NCBI GenBank assembly: GCA_964016885.1 | Contig: OZ024744.1 | Span: forward strand, 35,216,001-35,280,000 | DNA length: 64,000 bases | Origin: Eledone cirrhosa | Lineage: Eukaryota | Reading direction: 5' to 3' | Shown here: positions 2,612 through 57,967 of the stretch, piece after piece | Numbering within the stretch: position 1 is the first letter of the stretch | How the letters are laid out: each line of letters opens with the position of its first letter | The notes under the pieces: model-generated | What the model was told of the DNA's origin: nothing | What the model saw: the letters and a program-made list of their open reading frames with translations, nothing else | Databases searched by the model: none | Program-made: the position numbers and the translations under genes

Positions 2612-3391
2612 GAATGCTATGGTTGACGGAGGCTCGGCTCTGTAAGGTACTGTAAATTTTGAACGCTATAACAATTGTAAATTGTTTAAAACTTAGACCA
2701 ACTTGTAGACAAAAACACCCTCCTCCTCGTGAGTGGGGTCTTTCTGCCCGTTATTTGGCCCTTCGGGGTTAAATAACTGCTTATTGGGGTTTTGTACCCA
2801 ATATTTATTTTAAACAAAAAAAACAACATGGCTACGAAAAAGAATTTGCATAGGTCACTCCCACTCATTCCGTCTTCTTCTTCCTCAATCGTCACTACAG
2901 CAGAGAGAAGATTGTCTCTCTCCCTCCCTTCTTTAAATGTGTCTCTCTCCCTCCCTTCTCTTTCGCAAGTGACGAAAGAAAAGAAAAGTCTCGTGCAAAG
3001 CGTGCAAGGTTTCTCCACGACGACGACGACAGCGACGAAACAGGTGTGCGGGAAATACGAAAACCCAGTTCATTCGTCTGACGTCAGGAATAATAGCAGT
3101 AGCAGCCGTAATAACAACAGCAACAGTGACAATGAAAACAACAGTAGCAGCCGCAACAGCATCACCAGCAGCATAAACAACAACAGCATTAGCAGCAGCA
3201 ACACCAACAACAACCACAGCAACAGCGGCGGAGGCAGTAGTCGTAGTACCTGCAGCAACAACAAAAGTAACAGCAGCTCTGACGACAACAACAACAACAG
3301 CAGCAAAGAAAAACCAATCTCATTTGCAGGTATTGCGAAAAACTTGTAAACAATCCTCATAACAAATGAGGAATTAGAGGAAGCGAAGAAG

Positions 3392-4917
3392 ATGGTGACA
3401 AAGAATGGACACCGAGCAATCTGCAAGGCAGCGGAAACATTTTTCGAAACCCAACAGCACTGTACGGTCACGTACCGTACAGTAAGTACAAAATCCCGTA
3501 GGGTGGAAAGAGCCACAGAGGCTCAAATACAAAAAGCCTTGGGGTCTGTGTGGCAGCGGAAAACGCACATCACCCGAGGCAAAAAATATGCCACCGTAGA
3601 CGTACTTTTTGCTACACCCCAGGAGGCAAAGGCCCAATCCGGAGTGAGCCTAAGGAGCGAGGAAATGGTGTTGGTGCCCTCCTACTGCGGGCAAAAAATT
3701 GTGAGGGTCAAACTGACCCACATCCCACCCGGAATGGCCCCTTCTTGGCTGGCCGCGTCTGTCCTCGTCGGAATCGAGGACAAAACAACTGTACTGCAAG
3801 TACAGAAAAAAGTAAGAGAAGATTGGGTTGGCACCTCCATTGAGATGCTAATCCAAACCAACCAGGAGTGCATCGAAGCTATCCCGGATGTGATAGACTT
3901 CGATAACGGCTTGAGTTGATAAGAGTTGAGGGAAAACGCCCGAAATGTTTTCGCTGTGGATCGAAGACTCACCTCAGGGCCTTCTGAAACGAGAAGACCC
4001 CGAGAAAGGAGAAAACCCCCCTCCTTCCGAAACCGGCTCCACGGCTACCAGCAACAGGACAAGCGGCAACCAGGAACGCTAGGTCCGTGGCACCCATACC
4101 CACGCCACGGAAATCAAAAACAGCAGCAGCAGTGGAAATATTAACAACAACAGCAATACCAAATGCAGCTGCAACAGAGACTCCAGTGCAAACATCACCA
4201 ACAACAACAAGTGAAAGAGTGGAGCTGGTACCCCTCCCCGACCTCACAGAATCAGACATGGAGTGTGAGGTGGGAGAGGGATGGCAAAAGGTCGTAAGAA
4301 GGCACAAACGCAGAAGCAGCGCATCGTCGCCTTTGAAAAGGGAGGAAAGAAATGAGAAAAGGGTAAAGTCTACTGCAAAGAGACCCACAGCAGCAACACC
4401 ACCAACACCATCACCACCCACACTAGCACCACCATCACCACCGGCGACAACCCCACCGCCAACAACACCTTCAACACCACAAGCACCAACATCGCAAACA
4501 CAACAACAAAACACACACACCCAGCAACAACGACAAGAAAATAGCAGAACCACACCCCACCCCCAGAAAAACAAATGCACAGCAATAAATATACACAACA
4601 AGAAACTAATGAATTACATAATTGAACACACAGACATTTCACAACACGACTACATAATACCAGCACCAATCAAAACGCCAACTAACATAAGACTGCTAAA
4701 AATAGCACAGAAACAATACACAAACATTAAAACGAAATTCCCCAACGCAGTTGGTGATTTCAGGGACCTAGGAGGAACTATCAATCGAAGAGTATATTCA
4801 GACATTCTCTTAGAAGAGCCGACGACCAGCCGAAGGGACGATTCAACGGTCCCTTCACCAGACGATCAAGTGAAAAGGGATGTAAAAACCATCCCTCTTC
4901 TACCAAAAGTACGGTAA
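3392..4917 (+). pseudogene. Tx1 ORF1 (gag-like nucleic-acid-binding protein), disrupted
   Basis: ORF 3392-3919 shifts frame near 3915 into VEGKRPKCFRCGSKTHLRAF*, a CX2CX4HX4C knuckle whose last Cys codon is TGA (3985-3987). The same frame continues through the Pro/Thr-rich ORF 4087-4917, which contains the GWQKV motif. Confidence 0.7.
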
Positions 4918-4952
4918 GTGGTCTTTCCCATCTTTTCCACTCTATTTTAAAC

Positions 4953-7900
4953 ATGACCTCACTCAGAATAGGCAGCATAAATGCGCGTGGCTTGGGGTCG
5001 TCATGGAAGCAGGGTCACCTGCTCAACGACCTCAGGTCACTAAACATAGATGTAGTGGCCATCAGCGAGACCAGAATCTCCGAAGCACGGGCCTTCGCAC
5101 CGATCTTCGGCGGCTACGATGTGTACGCATCTCCCAACCGTCCTGGATCGGGGGGAGGAGTTGCTGTGCTTTTTCGGAGAGGTTTGGATCTCGCCATACG
5201 GGCCATCTTCATGGACCCAGAGGGTAAGCTGGTGGTGTTGGACGTGACCAGCGGAGACGGGCAAGCTTTCAGGCTAGTGGCCGTCTATGCCCCGACAGGA
5301 GCAGGGCGGCCTGATTTCTTCCGGCGTCTGGAGACCTTTCTTGGAATGTCCCGCTCTTTAGTGTTAGTGGGCGACTGGAACGGGATCTTAGATGCACGCT
5401 GGGACTGTGTGGGATTAGCGGATAGGGGTGGAGGGTGCAAGAGCCTCACCAACCTGCTCAGGCGTTTTGAACTGTCTGACAGGTACCGATTGGATTTCCC
5501 GAATGTGCCAATGTGAACTTGGACAAATCGCATAGGGTCATCCAGATCATATCTAGATAGAGTATTTTGTAGGGAAATAGATAGGTCTAGCATAGGCTGT
5601 CCACAATTCAAGATAGTCAGCTACACGGACCACAAATTCGTGATCTGTGTGCTTGATTTAGATAGGCTTCATAGACGAGGACCCGGCTACTGGAAGCTAA
5701 ACGCGTCCTTACCAGCGCGCAAGGCCTACAGAGACCGGATTAGCGAACTAGTTAAGCGGGCGTTGACGGGGGCCATCGTCAACAACAAGTGGTGGTTTGC
5801 TCTGAAAAGAGCGATTAGAATAGAATCCATTAGGTTTAGTAAGGCTTTAGCAATAGAGAAAAATAGAGCAGAGGGAGAACTAGTTAGAAAATTAGACGAG
5901 GCGCTTAGCAAAGGCATTGCGACCGACGTGCTTGCGGCGAAATTGGCCCTTGACCAATTCTTCAATGCAAAGCACGAAGGCTGCGTTATCAGAGCAAGGG
6001 TGCGTGCTCTCAGACACGAGGGGACGAAAGCCGTTCAATGGGCCCGAGTGGCGGAGGCGCGTCGTGGCAACAAAGCCACGATCCGGTCTTTGGTGGACCA
6101 CGACGGGCGCATGCTACGCGATCCCGGGCAAATGTGTGAAGCTTTTCAGCGACACTTCGCTCAGCTGTTCGGGGGCAGCGGTGGGCCGGGTAGAGGGATG
6201 GACTTTAGTGTCTACCTCGACGGACTGCCGCGGCTCTCGGCCACTGAGGCGAAGTGTTGCGAAAAGCCGATAACAGCCGCTGAAGTAAGGGAGGCAATGA
6301 CTGGCTGCACAAGGGGTAAATCGCCTGGTTTGGATGGTCTGCCCTATGAACTTTACGTACAGATGCCAGACTTGTTCGGAGGCCTCTTGGCGGACGTCTA
6401 CTGCAACTGGCAACAGAACGGGAGAATCCCCAGTTCTGTGAGCCGAGGAGCGGTGGCACTGCTGAGAAAGGATCCGAACAAGGGGGATAACATAGATAAT
6501 TTTAGGCCCATAACTCTGCTAAACACAGAGTTCAAGATTTTGGCCAAGGTGCTAGCAAAGAGGTTGGCGCTTGTCGTTGGTGGTCTGGTGGGAGAGGCGC
6601 AGAAATGCGCCATTCCCGACAGATCCATCCACGACAACCTCCACCTCATGCGATACATCATAGAGAGGGTAGCTAAGGAACCTGGCACGGGTGGGTCCTT
6701 GATCAATTTAGATCAGTCGAAAGCTTTCGATAGGGTCGACCATCGTTACCTAGCGGCAGTCCTGAGGGCGGCTGGCTTTGGGCCCGTCTTCAGAGGCTGG
6801 ATCGCTGCCATGCACAGCGACATCTGCTCTGTGGTGAGAGTGAACGGTCACCTGTCGGAACCGTTCAACATCATGCGCTCGGTCCGCCAAGGATGTCCCC
6901 TCTCGTCCCTCTTGTACGTATTGACTCTCGAGCCATTACTGCACAAACTGGAGACGTTGAGGAGAGTCCCGCGCGAACTAGGATGCGGAAGATCCGTGTC
7001 AGCATATGCGGACGATGTCACCGTAGTGGTGTCGAACGCCAAACACATCGAGGCGATCGGCACTACACTAAGAGAATACGAAGCGGTGACAGGAGCAATG
7101 ATCAACCAGGAAAAGTCAGTGGGCCTGCAGCTCGGCACCTGGAGAGGCAGGTCCATGCCGTCCAACAGCGTCGTCGGACGCTGGACGGACGGACCGGTTA
7201 AATTAATAGGGGTCTGGTTCGGTCCGGACCTCCAGACGGACAAAAACTGGGACGAGGTGACGAGCAGAGTGGCTTCTCTCACCCAGAAATGGGCGGAGAG
7301 GAAGCTATCCCTGAAAGGTCGAGCGGAGGTGGCTAACACGTACATCGCGTCTGTCTTCTACTACCGCCTGACCGTCGTACCTTGTCCTAATCCTCGCCTG
7401 ACTGCGCTGGAGCGTTTGCTCTTTCACTTTTTGTGGAAGGGACGCGCTCCGATGGTCAGGCGGTCCATCTGTTGTCAACACCCGCTACGTGGGGGGCTGG
7501 GCATGCCGTGGCTGATGATGCGCAGACACGCGCTCAGGCTACGACATTTCCACCTCTTCCTCGACGGTGATCAGATGTGGTCACCGTTTGCTAGACACGT
7601 CTTTCCCCAGCTCGTCTCCTTGACGGAGCTGCAGTCCTGGGTCAAGCGAAGACCGAGAGGGAGCGCCTGGAGACTGGAATGTCTTCAGGCGCTCACAGCC
7701 CTCGACCAATCGGGCAATGTGATCGGTGGAAACTCCACCTCGGCGTTCTATAGAGGATTAGTGGAAGGGAAGAGCGACGACGTACTTGGGGAAACTCTAG
7801 GCGTCGACGAAAATCAACTAGCCAATCTCTTCGGAAGAACTTTCGGGCCAGGGCCTATGGACAACTTCCAGAAATCTCTGGCCTGGCAGTGCTACCGAGG

Positions 7901-8372
7901 AGCCTTGCCAGTTCGGGATAAACTCTACAGGCATGGAGGTGCCGTCAGCCGGGCATGTCCGAGATGCGCGCAGGGCGACGAAACCGTCCTGCACGCACTC
8001 GTCCAGTGTCCGAAAATTGCTGACTTGTGGGTTTATGTCGAACACCTGCTGTCGCGTTTAGGACGGATCCGGCTATCATCTGAGTCCATCGTGAGGATTG
8101 CCCCGCCCTCCTCCTTTAGCCGGGAAGGGCAGGCAGTTTTTATCTGCCTGGTGGCCATGGCGAAAGAGATAGTATGGTGGACACGTTTGAAAGGGCTGAA
8201 GACGAGCACTTACCTCTTCGGTGATGCTCTGATTGACTTTTTCAAATTTCATTTGAAAAGGAAAATCAGAGTAGAGAGGGAAGTGCTCTCTTCCCAGCAT
8301 TTTGTTGAAAGATGGGTGAGAGAAGCAAGAATGGCCCGAGTGAATGGGCCTACTCTGAGTATATATCTGTAA
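4953..8372 (+). pseudogene. Tx1 ORF2: AP endonuclease + reverse transcriptase + C-terminal CCHC finger, one internal stop
   Basis: APE motifs are SINARGL, ISET, VYAP, GDWN, LDR and TDH. RT motifs are KSPGLDGLP, FRPITLLN, DQSKAFDRV, RQGCPLS and YADD. The finger is CPRC..ETVLHALVQC. ORFs 4953-5516 and 5640-8372 are in frame, split only by TGA 5514-5516. Confidence 0.92.
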
Positions 8373-11259: not shown

Positions 11260-11517
11260 AGAGGTTATATTTCATTTGTTGGGATACAACAAGCAAAATA
11301 TTTTTATAACTGATATAAAGCACTCAAAAAATTATTGGAGTAAATATACAATATATTAATAAATGGAAACTATATTTATAAAACCATATTTATTTCATTA
11401 TACATATTAATCTATATTATATTTTATCTGATGAAAGCGCACTGGTGGCCCTTGAAATATGTATAATGAAATAAATATGGTTTTATAAATATAGTTTCCA
11501 TTTGTTAATATATTGTA
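11260..11517. mobile_element. Fold-back hammerhead cassette (family A) between (TA)n tracts
   Basis: Inverted arms lie at about 11345-11407 and 11457-11518. It is homologous to 22311-22592, 23769-23966, 57593-57970 and 58095-58215. Confidence 0.75.
11420..11473 (+). ncRNA. Minimal type-I hammerhead ribozyme (family A)
   Basis: TATTTTAT-CTGATGA-AAG..CTT-GAAA-TATGTA-TA-ATGAAATA. Stem I pairs and the core is intact. Confidence 0.72.
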
Positions 11518-11560
11518 TATATATATATATATATATATATTTATTAAAATAACAGATTAA

Positions 11561-11611
11561 AGTTTAAGCAAAGAATTGCTGCTTTCACCCTTAACGGGAT
11601 CTTCTAAAACT
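11561..11611 (-). ncRNA. Degenerate hammerhead at the 3' end of the Penelope-like element
   Basis: The minus strand reads AGTTT-TAGAAGA-TCCCGTTAAGGGT-GAAA-GCA..TGC-TT-AAACT. Stems I-III pair, but the core has two substitutions versus CTGAAGA. Confidence 0.5.
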
Positions 11612-11690
11612 AAAAAAGTAAATCTGTGAACGCAGAAGTAAATATTTCAAAAAACGTTGCAGCCGAAGGAAGACAGGAAGACGATACTTT

Positions 11691-11973
11691 GGTTCGTGGA
11701 AACGTTCCCTGGAAAAGAACGGGAAAAAAACGAGGATAGTACGTCATTATTTGAGCGGTGAAAAACAATTACACGCATAGACAGAACCACGTTTATGGTA
11801 TAAATGAAGTCATAGACTAATATTCTATTAGGTGGTTCATGGAGACGTTCTCTGGCAATGAACGAAACAAACGAAGATAATACGTCCTTATTTGGAGCGA
11901 TGAGAACAATTATACGCAAAGACAAAACCAGTAAACGGTATAACTGAAGTCGTAGACTAAAATTCTATTTAGG
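11691..11973. repeat. Two diverged tandem copies of a ~143 bp unit inside the PLE 3' region
   Basis: GGTTCRTGGARACGTTC...TGAAGTCRTAGACTAAWATTCTATT is repeated at 11691 and 11834. Confidence 0.8.
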
Positions 11974-13239
11974 AAACCGAATGATTCTCGGCCTCAGAGT
12001 TAAGAATAAAGTAAATAAAATAGAGGTAATTGAAATTAAATATATACATACACGCATCCATATACGTACATACACATGCATACGCGAAAACACCCGCCAT
12101 GGGTATGCAAATATAAGCACGTACACAAAAAACACACGCACGTACATACATAACCCACACAACGCCTGTACCCGCACACATACGAACGTATACACCAAAA
12201 TCACATAAAAATATATATAAAATATATATATATGTGTGTGTGTGCGTGTATACATATAATTAAATAGACGTAAATAAATATACACACATAAATACGTATA
12301 TAACGAGCGCACACACATACCTACATGTAAATACAAACATGTTCGCAGACGTACGTCAACCAAAACACAAAGTACACATACACACACACCCTATATACGT
12401 ACGAACCCGCATACTCACACAGACGCAAAACTCATGTATACACATAACCAAATGCACATGTACCAGTATATATAAAATATACGCCATAACATAAACAAGC
12501 AAATATACGTACGAGAAAGTATACGTACCTTCACAAAACATACAGGTAATATATACTTACCTATACAAATAAGTAATGGTATAAACATAACATATACTTA
12601 CCTACCTCACCAAGACGTAAAATATCCGCATATAGTTCGTACTATCCGTGTGGGACTGTAATACAGGAAAGTTTTGTGCAATTTATGTTTACAAGCCGAA
12701 ATTGCCTCAGATTTTTTGTTTAAGATGTGGTCTTTAGCGTAGAGTATTTCCAGGGCCTCAGCAGCCCAGAGGTCACATAGTCTTTTATTTCCGTTATACG
12801 ATCTAGCCCTAGCTAGGATCCCCCAGTGTAACTTCTATTGGGTGTGGTTGTCTTTTAGACTCCAGATATAAGCTGAAAGTGACGTCATATTCCTTCTTAA
12901 AGGGTTAAGAAAAGAATGGGTATGCATGTAAAGACGCTGCTTGAATCTATTGGCGGTTAACCCTATGTAGGCCCTACGGGACGTGGGTGTTTCAACGTTA
13001 CATTTGTAGACAATGTTACTAGAGAGGCATTTCCCGGATAGAGGGCAGTCAACCCAATTCCTACAATTACAGTTAGTACTAACTATAGGGTTGTACGTGT
13101 TCCTACGGCTAGGTAGTTTAGCTAAATTTGAAGCTGTGATGTTATGTGCAAGGTTAGGAGTCGTAGAGTAAGACATTTTAATGGCATTTCTATTAAAAAT
13201 TTTACTATATTTATGTGTAGGGGGAAAATGCTTCATAAT

Positions 13240-13423
13240 TGTTTCTACTTTTGGCACAAGGCCAGCAATTACCCAGTGCATTACTGGTACTTTATTTTAT
13301 CGACTCCGTAAGGATGAAAGGCAAAGTTAACCTCGGCGGGATTTGAACTCAGAATGGCAAGGACCGTAACTCTATGCGTCAAAGCATGGCGTCCGACCCT
13401 CTACCGATACTGCCAATCCACCG
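13240..13423 (-). mobile_element. tRNA-derived SINE inserted into the PLE ORF
   Basis: It has an A box TGGCAGTATCGG, a B box GAGTTCAAATCC and a central GCCTTTCATCCTTACGGAGTCGATAAAAT. The 8-bp TSD TTCATAAT lies at 13232-13239 and 13424-13431. Removing the SINE restores FLSLIMKHFP. Confidence 0.88.
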
Positions 13424-22439: not shown

Positions 22440-22505
22440 TATTTCATTATACATATTTCGGGGATACCATATTTAAAATATGGCATGCCTTCTTCAGATA
22501 AAATA
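22440..22505 (-). ncRNA. Minimal type-I hammerhead ribozyme (family A)
   Basis: The minus strand reads TATTTTAT-CTGAAGA-AGGCATGCCATATT..AATATGGTATCCCC-GAAA-TATGTA-TA-ATGAAATA. Confidence 0.75.
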
Positions 22506-23855: not shown

Positions 23856-23921
23856 TATTTTATCTGAAGAAGGCATGCCATATTTTTAATATGGTATCCC
23901 CGAAATATGTATAATGAAATA
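23856..23921 (+). ncRNA. Minimal type-I hammerhead ribozyme (family A)
   Basis: It is the inverted copy of 22440-22505, with core CTGAAGA / GAAA / TA intact. Confidence 0.75.
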
Positions 23922-23961: not shown

Positions 23962-24007
<46 letters not shown>

Positions 24008-24010
<3 letters not shown>

Positions 24011-24550
24011 GATTAGAGTTAAAACTCCAATTGGAACCCTGTAACTATTAAGCTCCAAGTATAAAAATATTAAATGTTATACTATATATTATTAATCGGC
24101 TCATTATTTTTATACTTGGAGCTTAATAGTTACAGGGTTCCAATTGGAGTTTTAACTCTAATTTTCATATATATTTCTGCTCCCTCACAAGTTGAGCTTA
24201 TTAAGTTGTGTGTGTTGGACTGTTATTTCTATTCAATACGCGCTTACCACGTTTGACTAGCGGCGCACGAGGTGACAAATTCATCTTTCTGTGTGAACGT
24301 TGGCAAATAGTGTTTGTTGCATTTAATCAGATTCTCTCGCTGATGATGCCCAGAATTATCTGTTACAAACACACTCAGGGCGAAACAGATTAGGGATAAT
24401 CTGTCCGAGAGATATAATGGTTATTGAGGCGGTTTGTATAATAATATATTTTTATTTTATCATTCTGTCTGCTTCTTGGTTAAATATTTCAAACAAATGT
24501 GGTTTTTCAACCCTTGTAATTTTAGACACACGGTTTACTGTGTTTCTTAC

Positions 24551-24552
<2 letters not shown>
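24008..24552 (+). mobile_element. Short hammerhead-bearing element with 5' fold-back, in (TA)n
   Basis: It has inverted arms at 24008-24069 / 24105-24166 and a hammerhead at 24333-24412, with (TA)n on both sides. Confidence 0.7.
24333..24412 (+). ncRNA. Canonical full type-I hammerhead ribozyme
   Basis: Stem I is TCTCTCG/CGAGAGA (7 bp), followed by CTGATGA, stem II GCCC/GGGC, GAAA and stem III CAGATTA-GGGA-TAATCTG (7 bp). The GUC cleavage triplet is at 24403-24405. Confidence 0.9.
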
Positions 24553-24606
<54 letters not shown>

Positions 24607-24777
24607 CAGAACTTTTTTCGCTCTACATGGCTGAATACAATAAATGTAATCTGAGTTTTTCGAATATTAATAATAACATTCGATTCGTTTGCAATTATGC
24701 AAACACGCCTCAATTTTATAGCCATGTCAGTAGAATGAACCCTTCATTCTTGCTCTTGTGTTGGCATGTAAACAGAA

Positions 24778-24821
24778 CTGCAGATACTAATGTTTCTGGG
24801 TATCACCCTTCATCAGTACAG
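24778..24821 (-). ncRNA. Type-I hammerhead ribozyme (family D, left arm)
   Basis: The minus strand reads CTGTA-CTGATGA-AGGGTGATACCCA-GAAA-CATTAGTA-TC-TGCAG. Confidence 0.65.
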
Positions 24822-25122
24822 CTCACTGTTCACCAGCCAAACTGTCAGAGCTAGTGAAAATATATGCGATTTTCAAAATTACACAGTGACTGATCGGCCT
24901 GATTTGCATATTAGCAGACTGGCTGATCAGTCAAATCTGCATATTAGCAGATCCACTGATCAGCCAGATTTGCATATCAGCAGACTGGCCAGTCTGCAAA
25001 TATGCAGATCTGACTGACCAGCCAGTCTGCTAATATGCAAATCAGGCCGATCAGTCACTGTGTAATTTTGAAAATCGCATATATTTTCACTAGCTCTGAC
25101 AGTTTGGCAGGTGAACAGTGAG

Positions 25123-25166
25123 CTGTACTGATGAAGGGTGATACCCAGAAACATTAGTGTCTGCAG
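25123..25166 (+). ncRNA. Type-I hammerhead ribozyme (family D, right arm)
   Basis: CTGTA-CTGATGA-AGGGTGATACCCA-GAAA-CATTAGTG-TC-TGCAG, with a GUC triplet and a near-palindromic stem III. Confidence 0.75.
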
Positions 25167-25300
25167 ATCTGTTCACATGCCAACACAAGAGCAAGAACGA
25201 GGGGCTATTCTACTGACATGGCTATAAAACAGAGGCTTGTTTGCATAATTGTAAACGAATCGAATATTATTATTAATATTCGAAAAACTCAGATTACATT

Positions 25301-25451
<151 letters not shown>

Positions 25452-33965: not shown

Positions 33966-33997
33966 AGATCAAAAGATGGTTAAAGGAGTTCCATGTA

Positions 33998-34064
33998 TTT
34001 TATTATGCGCATTTCAAAAACAAACATCATCATGCAATAATATTTGTGTTTTCATCAGATAAAA
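33998..34064 (-). ncRNA. Minimal type-I hammerhead (mirror copy)
   Basis: It is the reverse complement of 34187-34253. Confidence 0.75.
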
Positions 34065-34186
34065 CAGGAGAACATGATATGAAGGCTAAAAAACACTTGT
34101 GGATAGTGCAGTTTTAAATCATCATATGTTGATTTAAAACTGCACTATCCACAAGTGTTTTTTAGCCTTCATATCATGTTCTCCTG

Positions 34187-34253
34187 TTTTATCTGATGAA
34201 AACACAAATATTATTGCATGATGATGTTTGTTTTTGAAATGCGCATAATAAAA
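34187..34253 (+). ncRNA. Minimal type-I hammerhead ribozyme
   Basis: TTTTAT-CTGATGA-AAACAC..GTTTTT-GAAA-TGCGCA-TA-ATAAAA, with palindromic stem III TGCGCA. Confidence 0.78.
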
Positions 34254-34379
34254 TACATGGAACTCCTTTAACCATCTTTTGATCTTATATTATGTATACT
34301 CCAGTCCTACAAACTGTAGAGTGCTTCTTATCCGATATCTGCATTGCTTTATTGTACTACAATAAAACTCACCTACTAC

Positions 34380-37965: not shown

Positions 37966-38312
37966 ATTTTCATTTCATCATCATTTCCTTTTATGTCCGC
38001 TTTTCCCTGCTTGCAAGGGTGGGACGGGAACTGATTCTGGCTTGATTTCTACAACTGGATGCCCTTCCTAACTCCAACCTCATTTACAGTGAGTGATGGG
38101 TGCTTTTTTGCCGTGGCACCTCCACGACCACTTTGCAGTGGAATGATAGGGACTCCACTCCCTATCATCTCATTTCTACAGCCTAGTAAACTGGAGCAAT
38201 GTCAAATAAAATGTCTTGCTCAAGGAAACAACACATCACCCGATCTGAGAATTGAACTCACAATCTTTCGATTGCAAGCCCAATGCTCTAACCACTAAGC
38301 CATGTGCCTCCA
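37966..38312 (-). mobile_element. tRNA-headed SINE with RTE-derived tail
   Basis: It belongs to the same family as 20247-20605 and 39284-39629. Confidence 0.85.
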
Positions 38313-38816: not shown

Positions 38817-38872
38817 ACTGCCTGATGAGGTCATAGCCATTCAATGGCTATCATCGAAATATATATAGCAGT
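38817..38872 (+). ncRNA. Minimal type-I hammerhead ribozyme (family B)
   Basis: ACTGC-CTGATGA-GGTCATAGCCAT-TCA-ATGGCTATCATC-GAAA-TATATA-TA-GCAGT, followed by AATAAA and (TA)n about 45 bp later. Confidence 0.82.
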
Positions 38873-47407: not shown

Positions 47408-47539
47408 ATTCCAAAAGAAAAGCAAAGGAAAAAAGAGTGCTCTATGTATAGAATAGAGCTATTTAATTAGAAAGTGAACAACACAAAATATAACTACTCC
47501 ATTAATTACCAAAGGTTTCTGGATCACAGATGATAATAG

Positions 47540-57592: not shown

Positions 57593-57967
57593 TTGTTGGG
57601 ATACAACAAGCAAATATTTTTATAACTGATATAAAGCACTCAACAAATAATTGGAGTAAAAATACGATATTGACAAATGGAAACTATATTTATAAAACAA
57701 TATAATATAGAGCAGTTTTATAAATAAATATTGACATACCCTTAAAGAATGCAACCATTACTGTTGGAAGCTCCCGGATAATGTCTATCCGGGAGCTTCC
57801 AACAGAAATGGTTGCATTCTTTAAGGGTATGTCAATATTTATTTATAAAACTGCTCTATATTATATTTTATCTGATGAAAGCACACTATAATTTAACTTG
57901 GTGTCCTTGAAATATGTATAATGAAATAAATATGGTTTTATAAATATAGTTTCCCTTTGTTAATATC

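Follow-up and report, generated by a model that had tools for sequence, protein, structure and literature searches.

A tandem repeat of Eledone cirrhosa with an atypical hammerhead motif, likely copied into (TA)n tracts by a Hydra-clade Penelope-like enzyme

The analyzed window (a stretch of 64,000 nucleotides from contig OZ024744.1 of Eledone cirrhosa, a 3.0-Gb genome) is animal-type DNA rich in repeats, and contains a 468-bp repeat unit that carries a type I hammerhead motif (Table 1). Nine further hammerhead-like motifs of the minimal Penelope type occur in the window; their helix III is short and in most cases palindromic, and several of the motifs form inverted pairs. An adjoining fold-back element (24640-25303) has minimal hammerheads on both arms and three central 33-bp repeats. 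A long LINE-like region was found at 3350-8372 (+), where an endonuclease-like frame precedes a 951-aa frame with RVT_1 and zf-RVT. A partial tRNA-like Rfam match of 31 bits at 38245-38302 (-) probably represents a SINE head.

Table 1. Features of the repeat unit, its hammerhead motif and related motifs (positions in the window)
Feature	Position	Strand	Remarks
Repeat unit, 468-bp	24092..24559	+	tandem period in other copies; 35% G+C
Inverted short arm, 70-bp	24000..24069	-	unit positions 24105-24174; ends at S1 in (TA)n 23963-24007
Penelope-type "tail" between S2 and S1	24092..24174	+	~85 nt on the circular map
GCTC...GAGC hairpin 1	24099..24122	+	just 3' of S2
End site S1, AU run	24167..24174	+	ends of 60/139 arms
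GCTC...GAGC hairpin 2	24179..24197	+	just 3' of S1; resembles hairpin after second Hydra end site
Conserved leader GTGTTTGT	24310..24317	+	complementary to loop II 24365-24372; putative pseudoknot or blocking helix
Predicted outer stem I, 5' strand	24320..24329	+	pairs with 24418-24426; alternatively with loop II 24354-24362
Type I hammerhead motif	24333..24412	+	predicted cut after C24405 (GUC)
Stem I	24333-39 / 24406-12		TCTCTCG / CGAGAGA
Core CTGATGA	24340-46		
Extra T after CTGATGA	24347		
Stem II	24348-51 / 24378-81		GCCC / GGGC; loop II of 26 nt
Loop II partner strand ACAAACAC	24365..24372	+	
Core GAAA	24382-85		
Stem III	24386-92 / 24397-403		CAGATTA / TAATCTG; GGGA loop
GUC cleavage triplet	24403-05		
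Predicted outer stem I, 3' strand	24418..24426	+	
End site S2, AU run	24551..24560	+	ends of 60/139 arms; fused to (TA)n 24551-24605 in the window copy
Hammerhead-like motifs, minimal Penelope type	11420-11473, 23856-23921, 25123-25166, 34185-34255, 38817-38872, 57864-57928	+	
Hammerhead-like motifs, minimal Penelope type	22440-22505, 24767-24820, 33996-34066	-	

Each motif element described in an earlier sequence-only reading of this DNA was found where that reading had placed it, and the type I hammerhead and cut site that it predicted are supported. The motif has CUGANGA, GAAA and UH at a three-way junction with helix I open, as in a type I core. The isolated 80-mer folds into the three hammerhead helices with stem pair probabilities of 0.94-1.0 (pairs sampled), but the MFE z-score was only -1.6. 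The real window has one motif whose helices reach at least 7, 4 and 7 pairs, against none in 150 Markov-resampled windows; Rfam gave no hammerhead match for it at the gathering score or at E ≤ 10. Helix III, with 7 bp plus an A-U pair, supports the claim that the motif is competent as a monomer, and sets it apart from minimal (dimeric) Penelope hammerheads, in which helix III is absent or of 1-2 bp with a palindromic loop; loop III varies freely among copies. The label of a "textbook" hammerhead does not suit it: since helix III is of 1-2 bp in most metazoan type I motifs (PMC4209133), the motif is atypical, and its loop II has 26 nt. One extra nucleotide after A9 of the core is a known variant (PMC4209133), and among copies that at 24347 is either U or A. 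Based on the modelled folds, the motif is an atypical animal type I hammerhead, predicted to act as a monomer and with a candidate pseudoknot.

The surrounding DNA had been read as a single ORF-less element of 545 bp. It consists instead of one 468-bp unit and a 70-bp inverted arm, both of which do end in (TA)n as described. The lack of ORFs was confirmed, the sole frame of at least 150 aa over the unit being a stop-to-stop frame through (TA)n, and no ORF with RT plus GIY-YIG, as in autonomous Penelope-like elements, was found in the unit or joined to it. G and C make up 163 of the 468 bases, under the 45% limit of retrozymes. Matches to Rfam microRNAs were discarded; they correspond to the inverted arm, and all were under the gathering score.

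A genome search with 24170-24550, in which 40 of 1403 candidates were scored, resulted in 78 matches, the full-length ones among them being 95-100% identical to the unit; the best copies reach 97-100% and contain 468-bp tandems. The exact core pattern was matched 508 times in the genome and the exact tail-hairpin pattern 1058 times, with no matches to either reversed control. Copies form arrays of two to more than five units with a tandem period of 468-472 bp and one type I hammerhead per unit. The window copy is a monomer, which with its single ribozyme cannot release a monomer by itself; 24354 and 24104 are the only positions at which it departs from most young copies. Older subfamilies are approximately 72-82% identical to the window unit, and a short interspersed repeat was inserted repeatedly in the AU-rich S2 of old copies (L248, L250, L253, L264, L274 and others). 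One array (L266:1102-3520) has five 472-bp units, with variants that alternate with period two, explained equally well by a dimeric circle or by local duplication, and with a change that breaks stem II in units 2-5 (four of five units).

Contigs from four sequencing runs of one study (type unspecified) contained subfamily variants, and were uninformative on ends, strand and level. In one of them (run X4, depth 11, over L048:1336-1533) approximately 15 A-to-G changes were observed on the ribozyme strand, one of them in the GAAA core. Young genomic copies showed no excess of A>G (68 rows, with 21 A>G and 28 T>C). A metagenome pattern search gave 94 matches, none of them a full hammerhead. Overall, the unit is a protein-less tandem repeat and, having the testable features of these elements, a non-LTR retrozyme, a known kind.

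Metazoan non-LTR retrozymes were described by Cervera and de la Pena 2020 (PMC7229834) and in the preprint of Li, Clavereau and Pollet 2026 (10.64898/2026.07.22.740005). Like them, the unit is protein-less, low in G+C and tandem, with one type I hammerhead each and copies from monomers to multimers, and it co-occurs with Penelope-like elements, a link already proposed in both sources. Its 468 nt are above the 170-400 nt given in the former and within the 51-972 bp given in the latter. It departs from them in its long helix III, 26-nt loop II and extra core nucleotide, as well as in a predicted self-pairing that could block the ribozyme, which most metazoan circles lack according to PMC7229834. 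Only one of nine Xenopus retrozyme dimers was cleaved (10.64898/2026.07.22.740005), which calls for caution regarding the activity of a retrozyme hammerhead. Our literature search found no publication on the 468-bp family or on the distribution of paired copy ends described below, although supplements may hold similar motifs.

The conservation of the ribozyme was analyzed in 60 loci, drawn from the first 100 entries in the list of 508 core matches (20 chosen for variant loops and 40 roughly in list order). These yielded 75 motifs; after dropping six with a truncated leader, merging identical ones and adding the window copy, 62 rows remained. Stem strands were 95-99% conserved, compared with 63-73% for loop III, the 5' flank and two spacers. 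Paired cells amounted to 98.5% and stem changes were mostly wobble, in an alignment whose core and stem II could not vary, being part of the search pattern. A single pair out of 33, in stem I, was changed on both sides, a value reached by 252 of 500 shuffles. Covariation is at the level of the shuffles.

A feature missed in that reading is the leader, which lies 15 nt upstream of stem I. The leader and its loop II partner are both 97-99% conserved between variable flanks, and their 8-bp complement is paired at each position in 60-62 of the 62 copies. The commonest change (10 copies) retains a U-G pair; two-sided changes were absent, and a predicted subfamily with compensatory leader and loop changes was searched for and not found. 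The alternative fold previously proposed for AUUAUCUG in loop II has a probability of 0.01-0.03; in nested folding, the true competitor uses GUGUUUGU at 24310-24317. Under the same nested folding, stem II has a probability of 0.32 in the 24300-24440 construct put forward for a cleavage assay and of 0.22 in the circular unit, where the leader-loop II helix reaches 0.76, and stem II returns to 0.91 when 24310-24317 is held unpaired. Stem II was below 0.5 in 85 of 106 copies, so that the ribozyme is predicted to be mostly unfolded in context; these are nested folds as computed by ViennaRNA, in which a pseudoknotted active fold cannot be scored.

Two roles of the leader-loop II helix were considered on the basis of these models. 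We give about an even chance to a pseudoknot that would clamp stems I and II; stem I plus the outer helix is similar in height to stem II plus the 8-bp helix, which makes such a clamp plausible. A block on the ribozyme seems a rather unlikely role. Pseudoknots are common and rate-enhancing in hammerheads (PMC3088659), and approximately 40% of representatives are predicted to use one in which, as in our unit, the loop of stem II makes a Watson-Crick contact with a strand next to stem I (Perreault et al. 2011, PMC3088659). In contrast to those hammerheads, the partner lies 15 nt upstream of stem I in the unit, its helix with loop II is also able to support a fold other than the hammerhead, and two-sided covariation is nil in 62 copies. 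Pairing of loop II with the downstream GTTTGTA (24432-24438) was ranked below the leader pairing, because 9 of 62 copies break it at one position and 4 at another. A duplex of leader and loop II over all 19 nt was also rejected, given that its 5-bp part has a probability of at most 0.03 and would be incompatible with a closed loop II.

The ends of the copies were mapped at 81 loci (90 less 6 overlapping and 3 duplicated), comprising 139 arms. Apart from the 3' ends at S1 and S2 (Table 1), 18 arms ended elsewhere and one at the locus edge. At least four TA steps were present within 16 nt after 104 of the 120 arms ending at S1 or S2. Around the ribozyme cut (24395-24415), there were no 3' ends and two 5' ends among the 139 arms. 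This binning is lenient; with a stricter one at 60 loci, 77 of 106 arms ended at S1 or S2, and again none at the cut. Arms longer than 1.05 units, which therefore cross the cut site, accounted for 48 of 139, a share inflated by the choice of loci for length or intact core. There were 44 head-to-head twins, and in 30 of the 31 whose ends could both be classed one arm ended at S1 and the other at S2 (p = 1.5e-8). Units and arms of one locus have private variants in common, though not uniformly.

The absence of 3' ends at the cut, the arms above 1.05 units and the S1+S2 twins together suggest a template that was uncut or circular, and the twins suggest that the two target strands were extended from different internal sites. 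Copies show 5' truncation, partial tandems, an inverted 5' copy, a tail at one end and a microsatellite target, as in Penelope-like insertions; target-site duplications are unreadable inside (TA)n. Such an insertion pattern, together with the 508 exact core matches, supports the repeat family with a Penelope link that had been proposed for this element.

Starting from a GIY-YIG fragment in the window, an abundant family with open frames of 709-713 aa was recovered (150 of 56951 candidates scored), and a second search added two more families of 714 and 719 aa. The window has a 5'-truncated Hydra-type Penelope-like element at 11545-13296 (-), which retains the GIY-YIG end and the 3' region, runs from the first end site into (TA)n and abuts a short interspersed repeat near 13236. 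The three families are 42-70% identical and all carry DKT and CxCX5C, the marks of the (TA)n-targeting Hydra clade (10.1101/2021.04.23.441226), by which they can be classed as Hydra-type. Each ends at two sites approximately 75-90 nt apart, compared with ~85 nt in the unit, and in the 709-713-aa family all nine twins, from 34 loci, had one of each end (A+B). A GCTC...GAGC closure follows the first end by a few bases in all three families, as it follows S2 in the unit; such sharing was reached in 3 of 20000 tail shuffles, for a motif selected after being seen. In repeat subfamilies, the closure of hairpin 2 is nearly constant and its inside variable. The hairpin is proposed as a candidate signal read by the enzyme. 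A GCTC...GAGC hairpin past an AT-rich run was also observed at window position 47459 (-), similar to the hairpin that comes first in the tail of the 714- and 719-aa families.

Beyond these features, the unit and the Hydra loci had no similarity by BLAST except for a nested insertion, and a test for a deletion derivative detected no pseudo-LTR homology to the three families sampled. Alignment of the whole tails was not above shuffles (global, 21 of 2000, equalled by other AT-rich windows of the unit; local, not significant). A parent Penelope-like element was not found in 34 plus 30 Hydra loci, nor a parent ORF joined to the tail in 39 tail-bearing loci. Immediately 5' of the first end, the 714- and 719-aa families carry a type I hammerhead, which has an extra nucleotide. 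Hammerheads have been called universal in the Hydra clade (10.1101/2021.04.23.441226); no canonical one was detected in the scanned copies of the most abundant family (L087-L090, L057-L086).

The unit is thus similar to Hydra-clade elements (Craig et al. 2021, 10.1101/2021.04.23.441226) in its (TA)n target, partial tandems, inverted 5'-truncated copy and one-end tail, and to the resident families in its pair of ends and its hairpins. It differs in having no ORF and no alignable homology to the families sampled, and in the distance from ribozyme to first end (~150 nt vs. ~40 in Hydra-clade elements); its tail of ~85 nt compares with 30-40 bp quoted for Penelope-like elements. In vitro, the enzyme of Poseidon PAc of Anolis cuts and extends both target strands (Frangieh et al. 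2024, PMC11167929). Two internal start sites bound its tail, ribozyme cleavage is dispensable and uncut RNA is the main template (PMC11167929). Likewise, two internal sites define the tail of the unit, and its copies do not end at the ribozyme cut. The starts of PAc are in an AC-rich stem-loop that lacks homology to the target, while those of the unit lie in AU runs matching (TA)n, and the rule of one arm per site in twins was not found for PAc in the available text of PMC11167929.

Judging from the sequences compared, we consider it probable that the retrozyme is copied into (TA)n by a Hydra-clade Penelope-like enzyme, likely from a ribozyme-aided RNA circle. Transcripts of multi-unit copies would be cut after C24405, once in each unit, and the monomers would be ligated into circles, rebuilding the motif, as in known retrozymes. 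The enzyme would then cut both (TA)n strands and start reverse transcription at the internal AU runs S1 and S2; the ends and the GCUC...GAGC hairpins that follow them are observed, and the hairpins may take part in the start. Copying through the cut site and round the unit would produce partial tandems and head-to-head twins with one arm per site. More tentatively, and with clearly less than even confidence, a dimeric Hydra enzyme could be hijacked through two modules of AU run and hairpin, one per subunit, by a circle whose ribozyme is switched by the 8-bp helix, a pseudoknot in the active state and an anchor in the inactive one.

With the same driver and starts, the template might instead be an uncut linear multimer, the leader keeping the ribozyme mostly off, circles being minor and the unit amounting to a protein-less pseudo-LTR. 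We regard this as unlikely, even though none of the 139 arms ends at the cut, the leader-loop II helix outweighs stem II in the nested folds of the circular unit until 24310-24317 is freed, uncut RNA is the main template of the enzyme in PMC11167929 and stem II is broken in four of the five units of the L266 array. Against it, core and stems are kept across subfamilies only ~72-82% identical while loop III varies, the pseudoknotted active fold lies beyond ViennaRNA scoring, and retrozyme circles are on record for coral, mussel and axolotl (PMC7229834).

Copying of the retrozyme by a Hydra-clade enzyme is also to be weighed against copying by another enzyme, from another Penelope clade or a LINE, with the shared hairpin being coincidental or general to Penelope-like elements. 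None of the three Hydra families sampled is homologous to the unit in sequence, the survey of the genome for a driver covered the Hydra clade only, and further (TA)n-targeting clades exist, e.g. Naiad (10.1101/2021.04.23.441226). Nevertheless, Hydra families of the same genome agree with the unit in the two-site ends, the length of the tail, the rule of one arm per site, the target and both hairpins, and we hold another enzyme to be quite improbable. LINE fragments are abundant in the window, but LINE-type copying begins at the RNA's 3' end, which does not fit internal ends. Least credible is a repeat of satellite or fold-back DNA type that carries a vestigial hammerhead and was amplified by recombination: the period-two variants of the L266 array fit local duplication, and single arrays may grow by recombination, but the dispersal of copies over many contigs, the fixed position of their 3' ends, the scatter of their 5' ends and the twin inversions form the pattern of target-primed reverse transcription, by which this explanation is largely refuted for dispersal.

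Finding a hammerhead in a tandem repeat of an animal is nothing unusual in itself, and the value of the family lies in a testable driver and signal. The driver of animal retrozymes and its priming were left open in the discussion of PMC7229834, the mechanism is still described as to be elucidated (10.64898/2026.07.22.740005), and no conserved motif pointing to a driver is known according to PMC7761336, whereas the unit has defined start sites and a motif in common with a named candidate. From its copy ends come a pair of fixed start sites and the rule of one arm per site, along with a short hairpin that intact Hydra-clade elements of this genome also carry, and enzyme, RNA and target are all at hand for a direct in vitro test. 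If a circle does hijack a dimeric Hydra enzyme, the driver, priming mode and cis signal of an animal retrozyme would be named, and a general rule for Penelope inverted insertions would be obtained.
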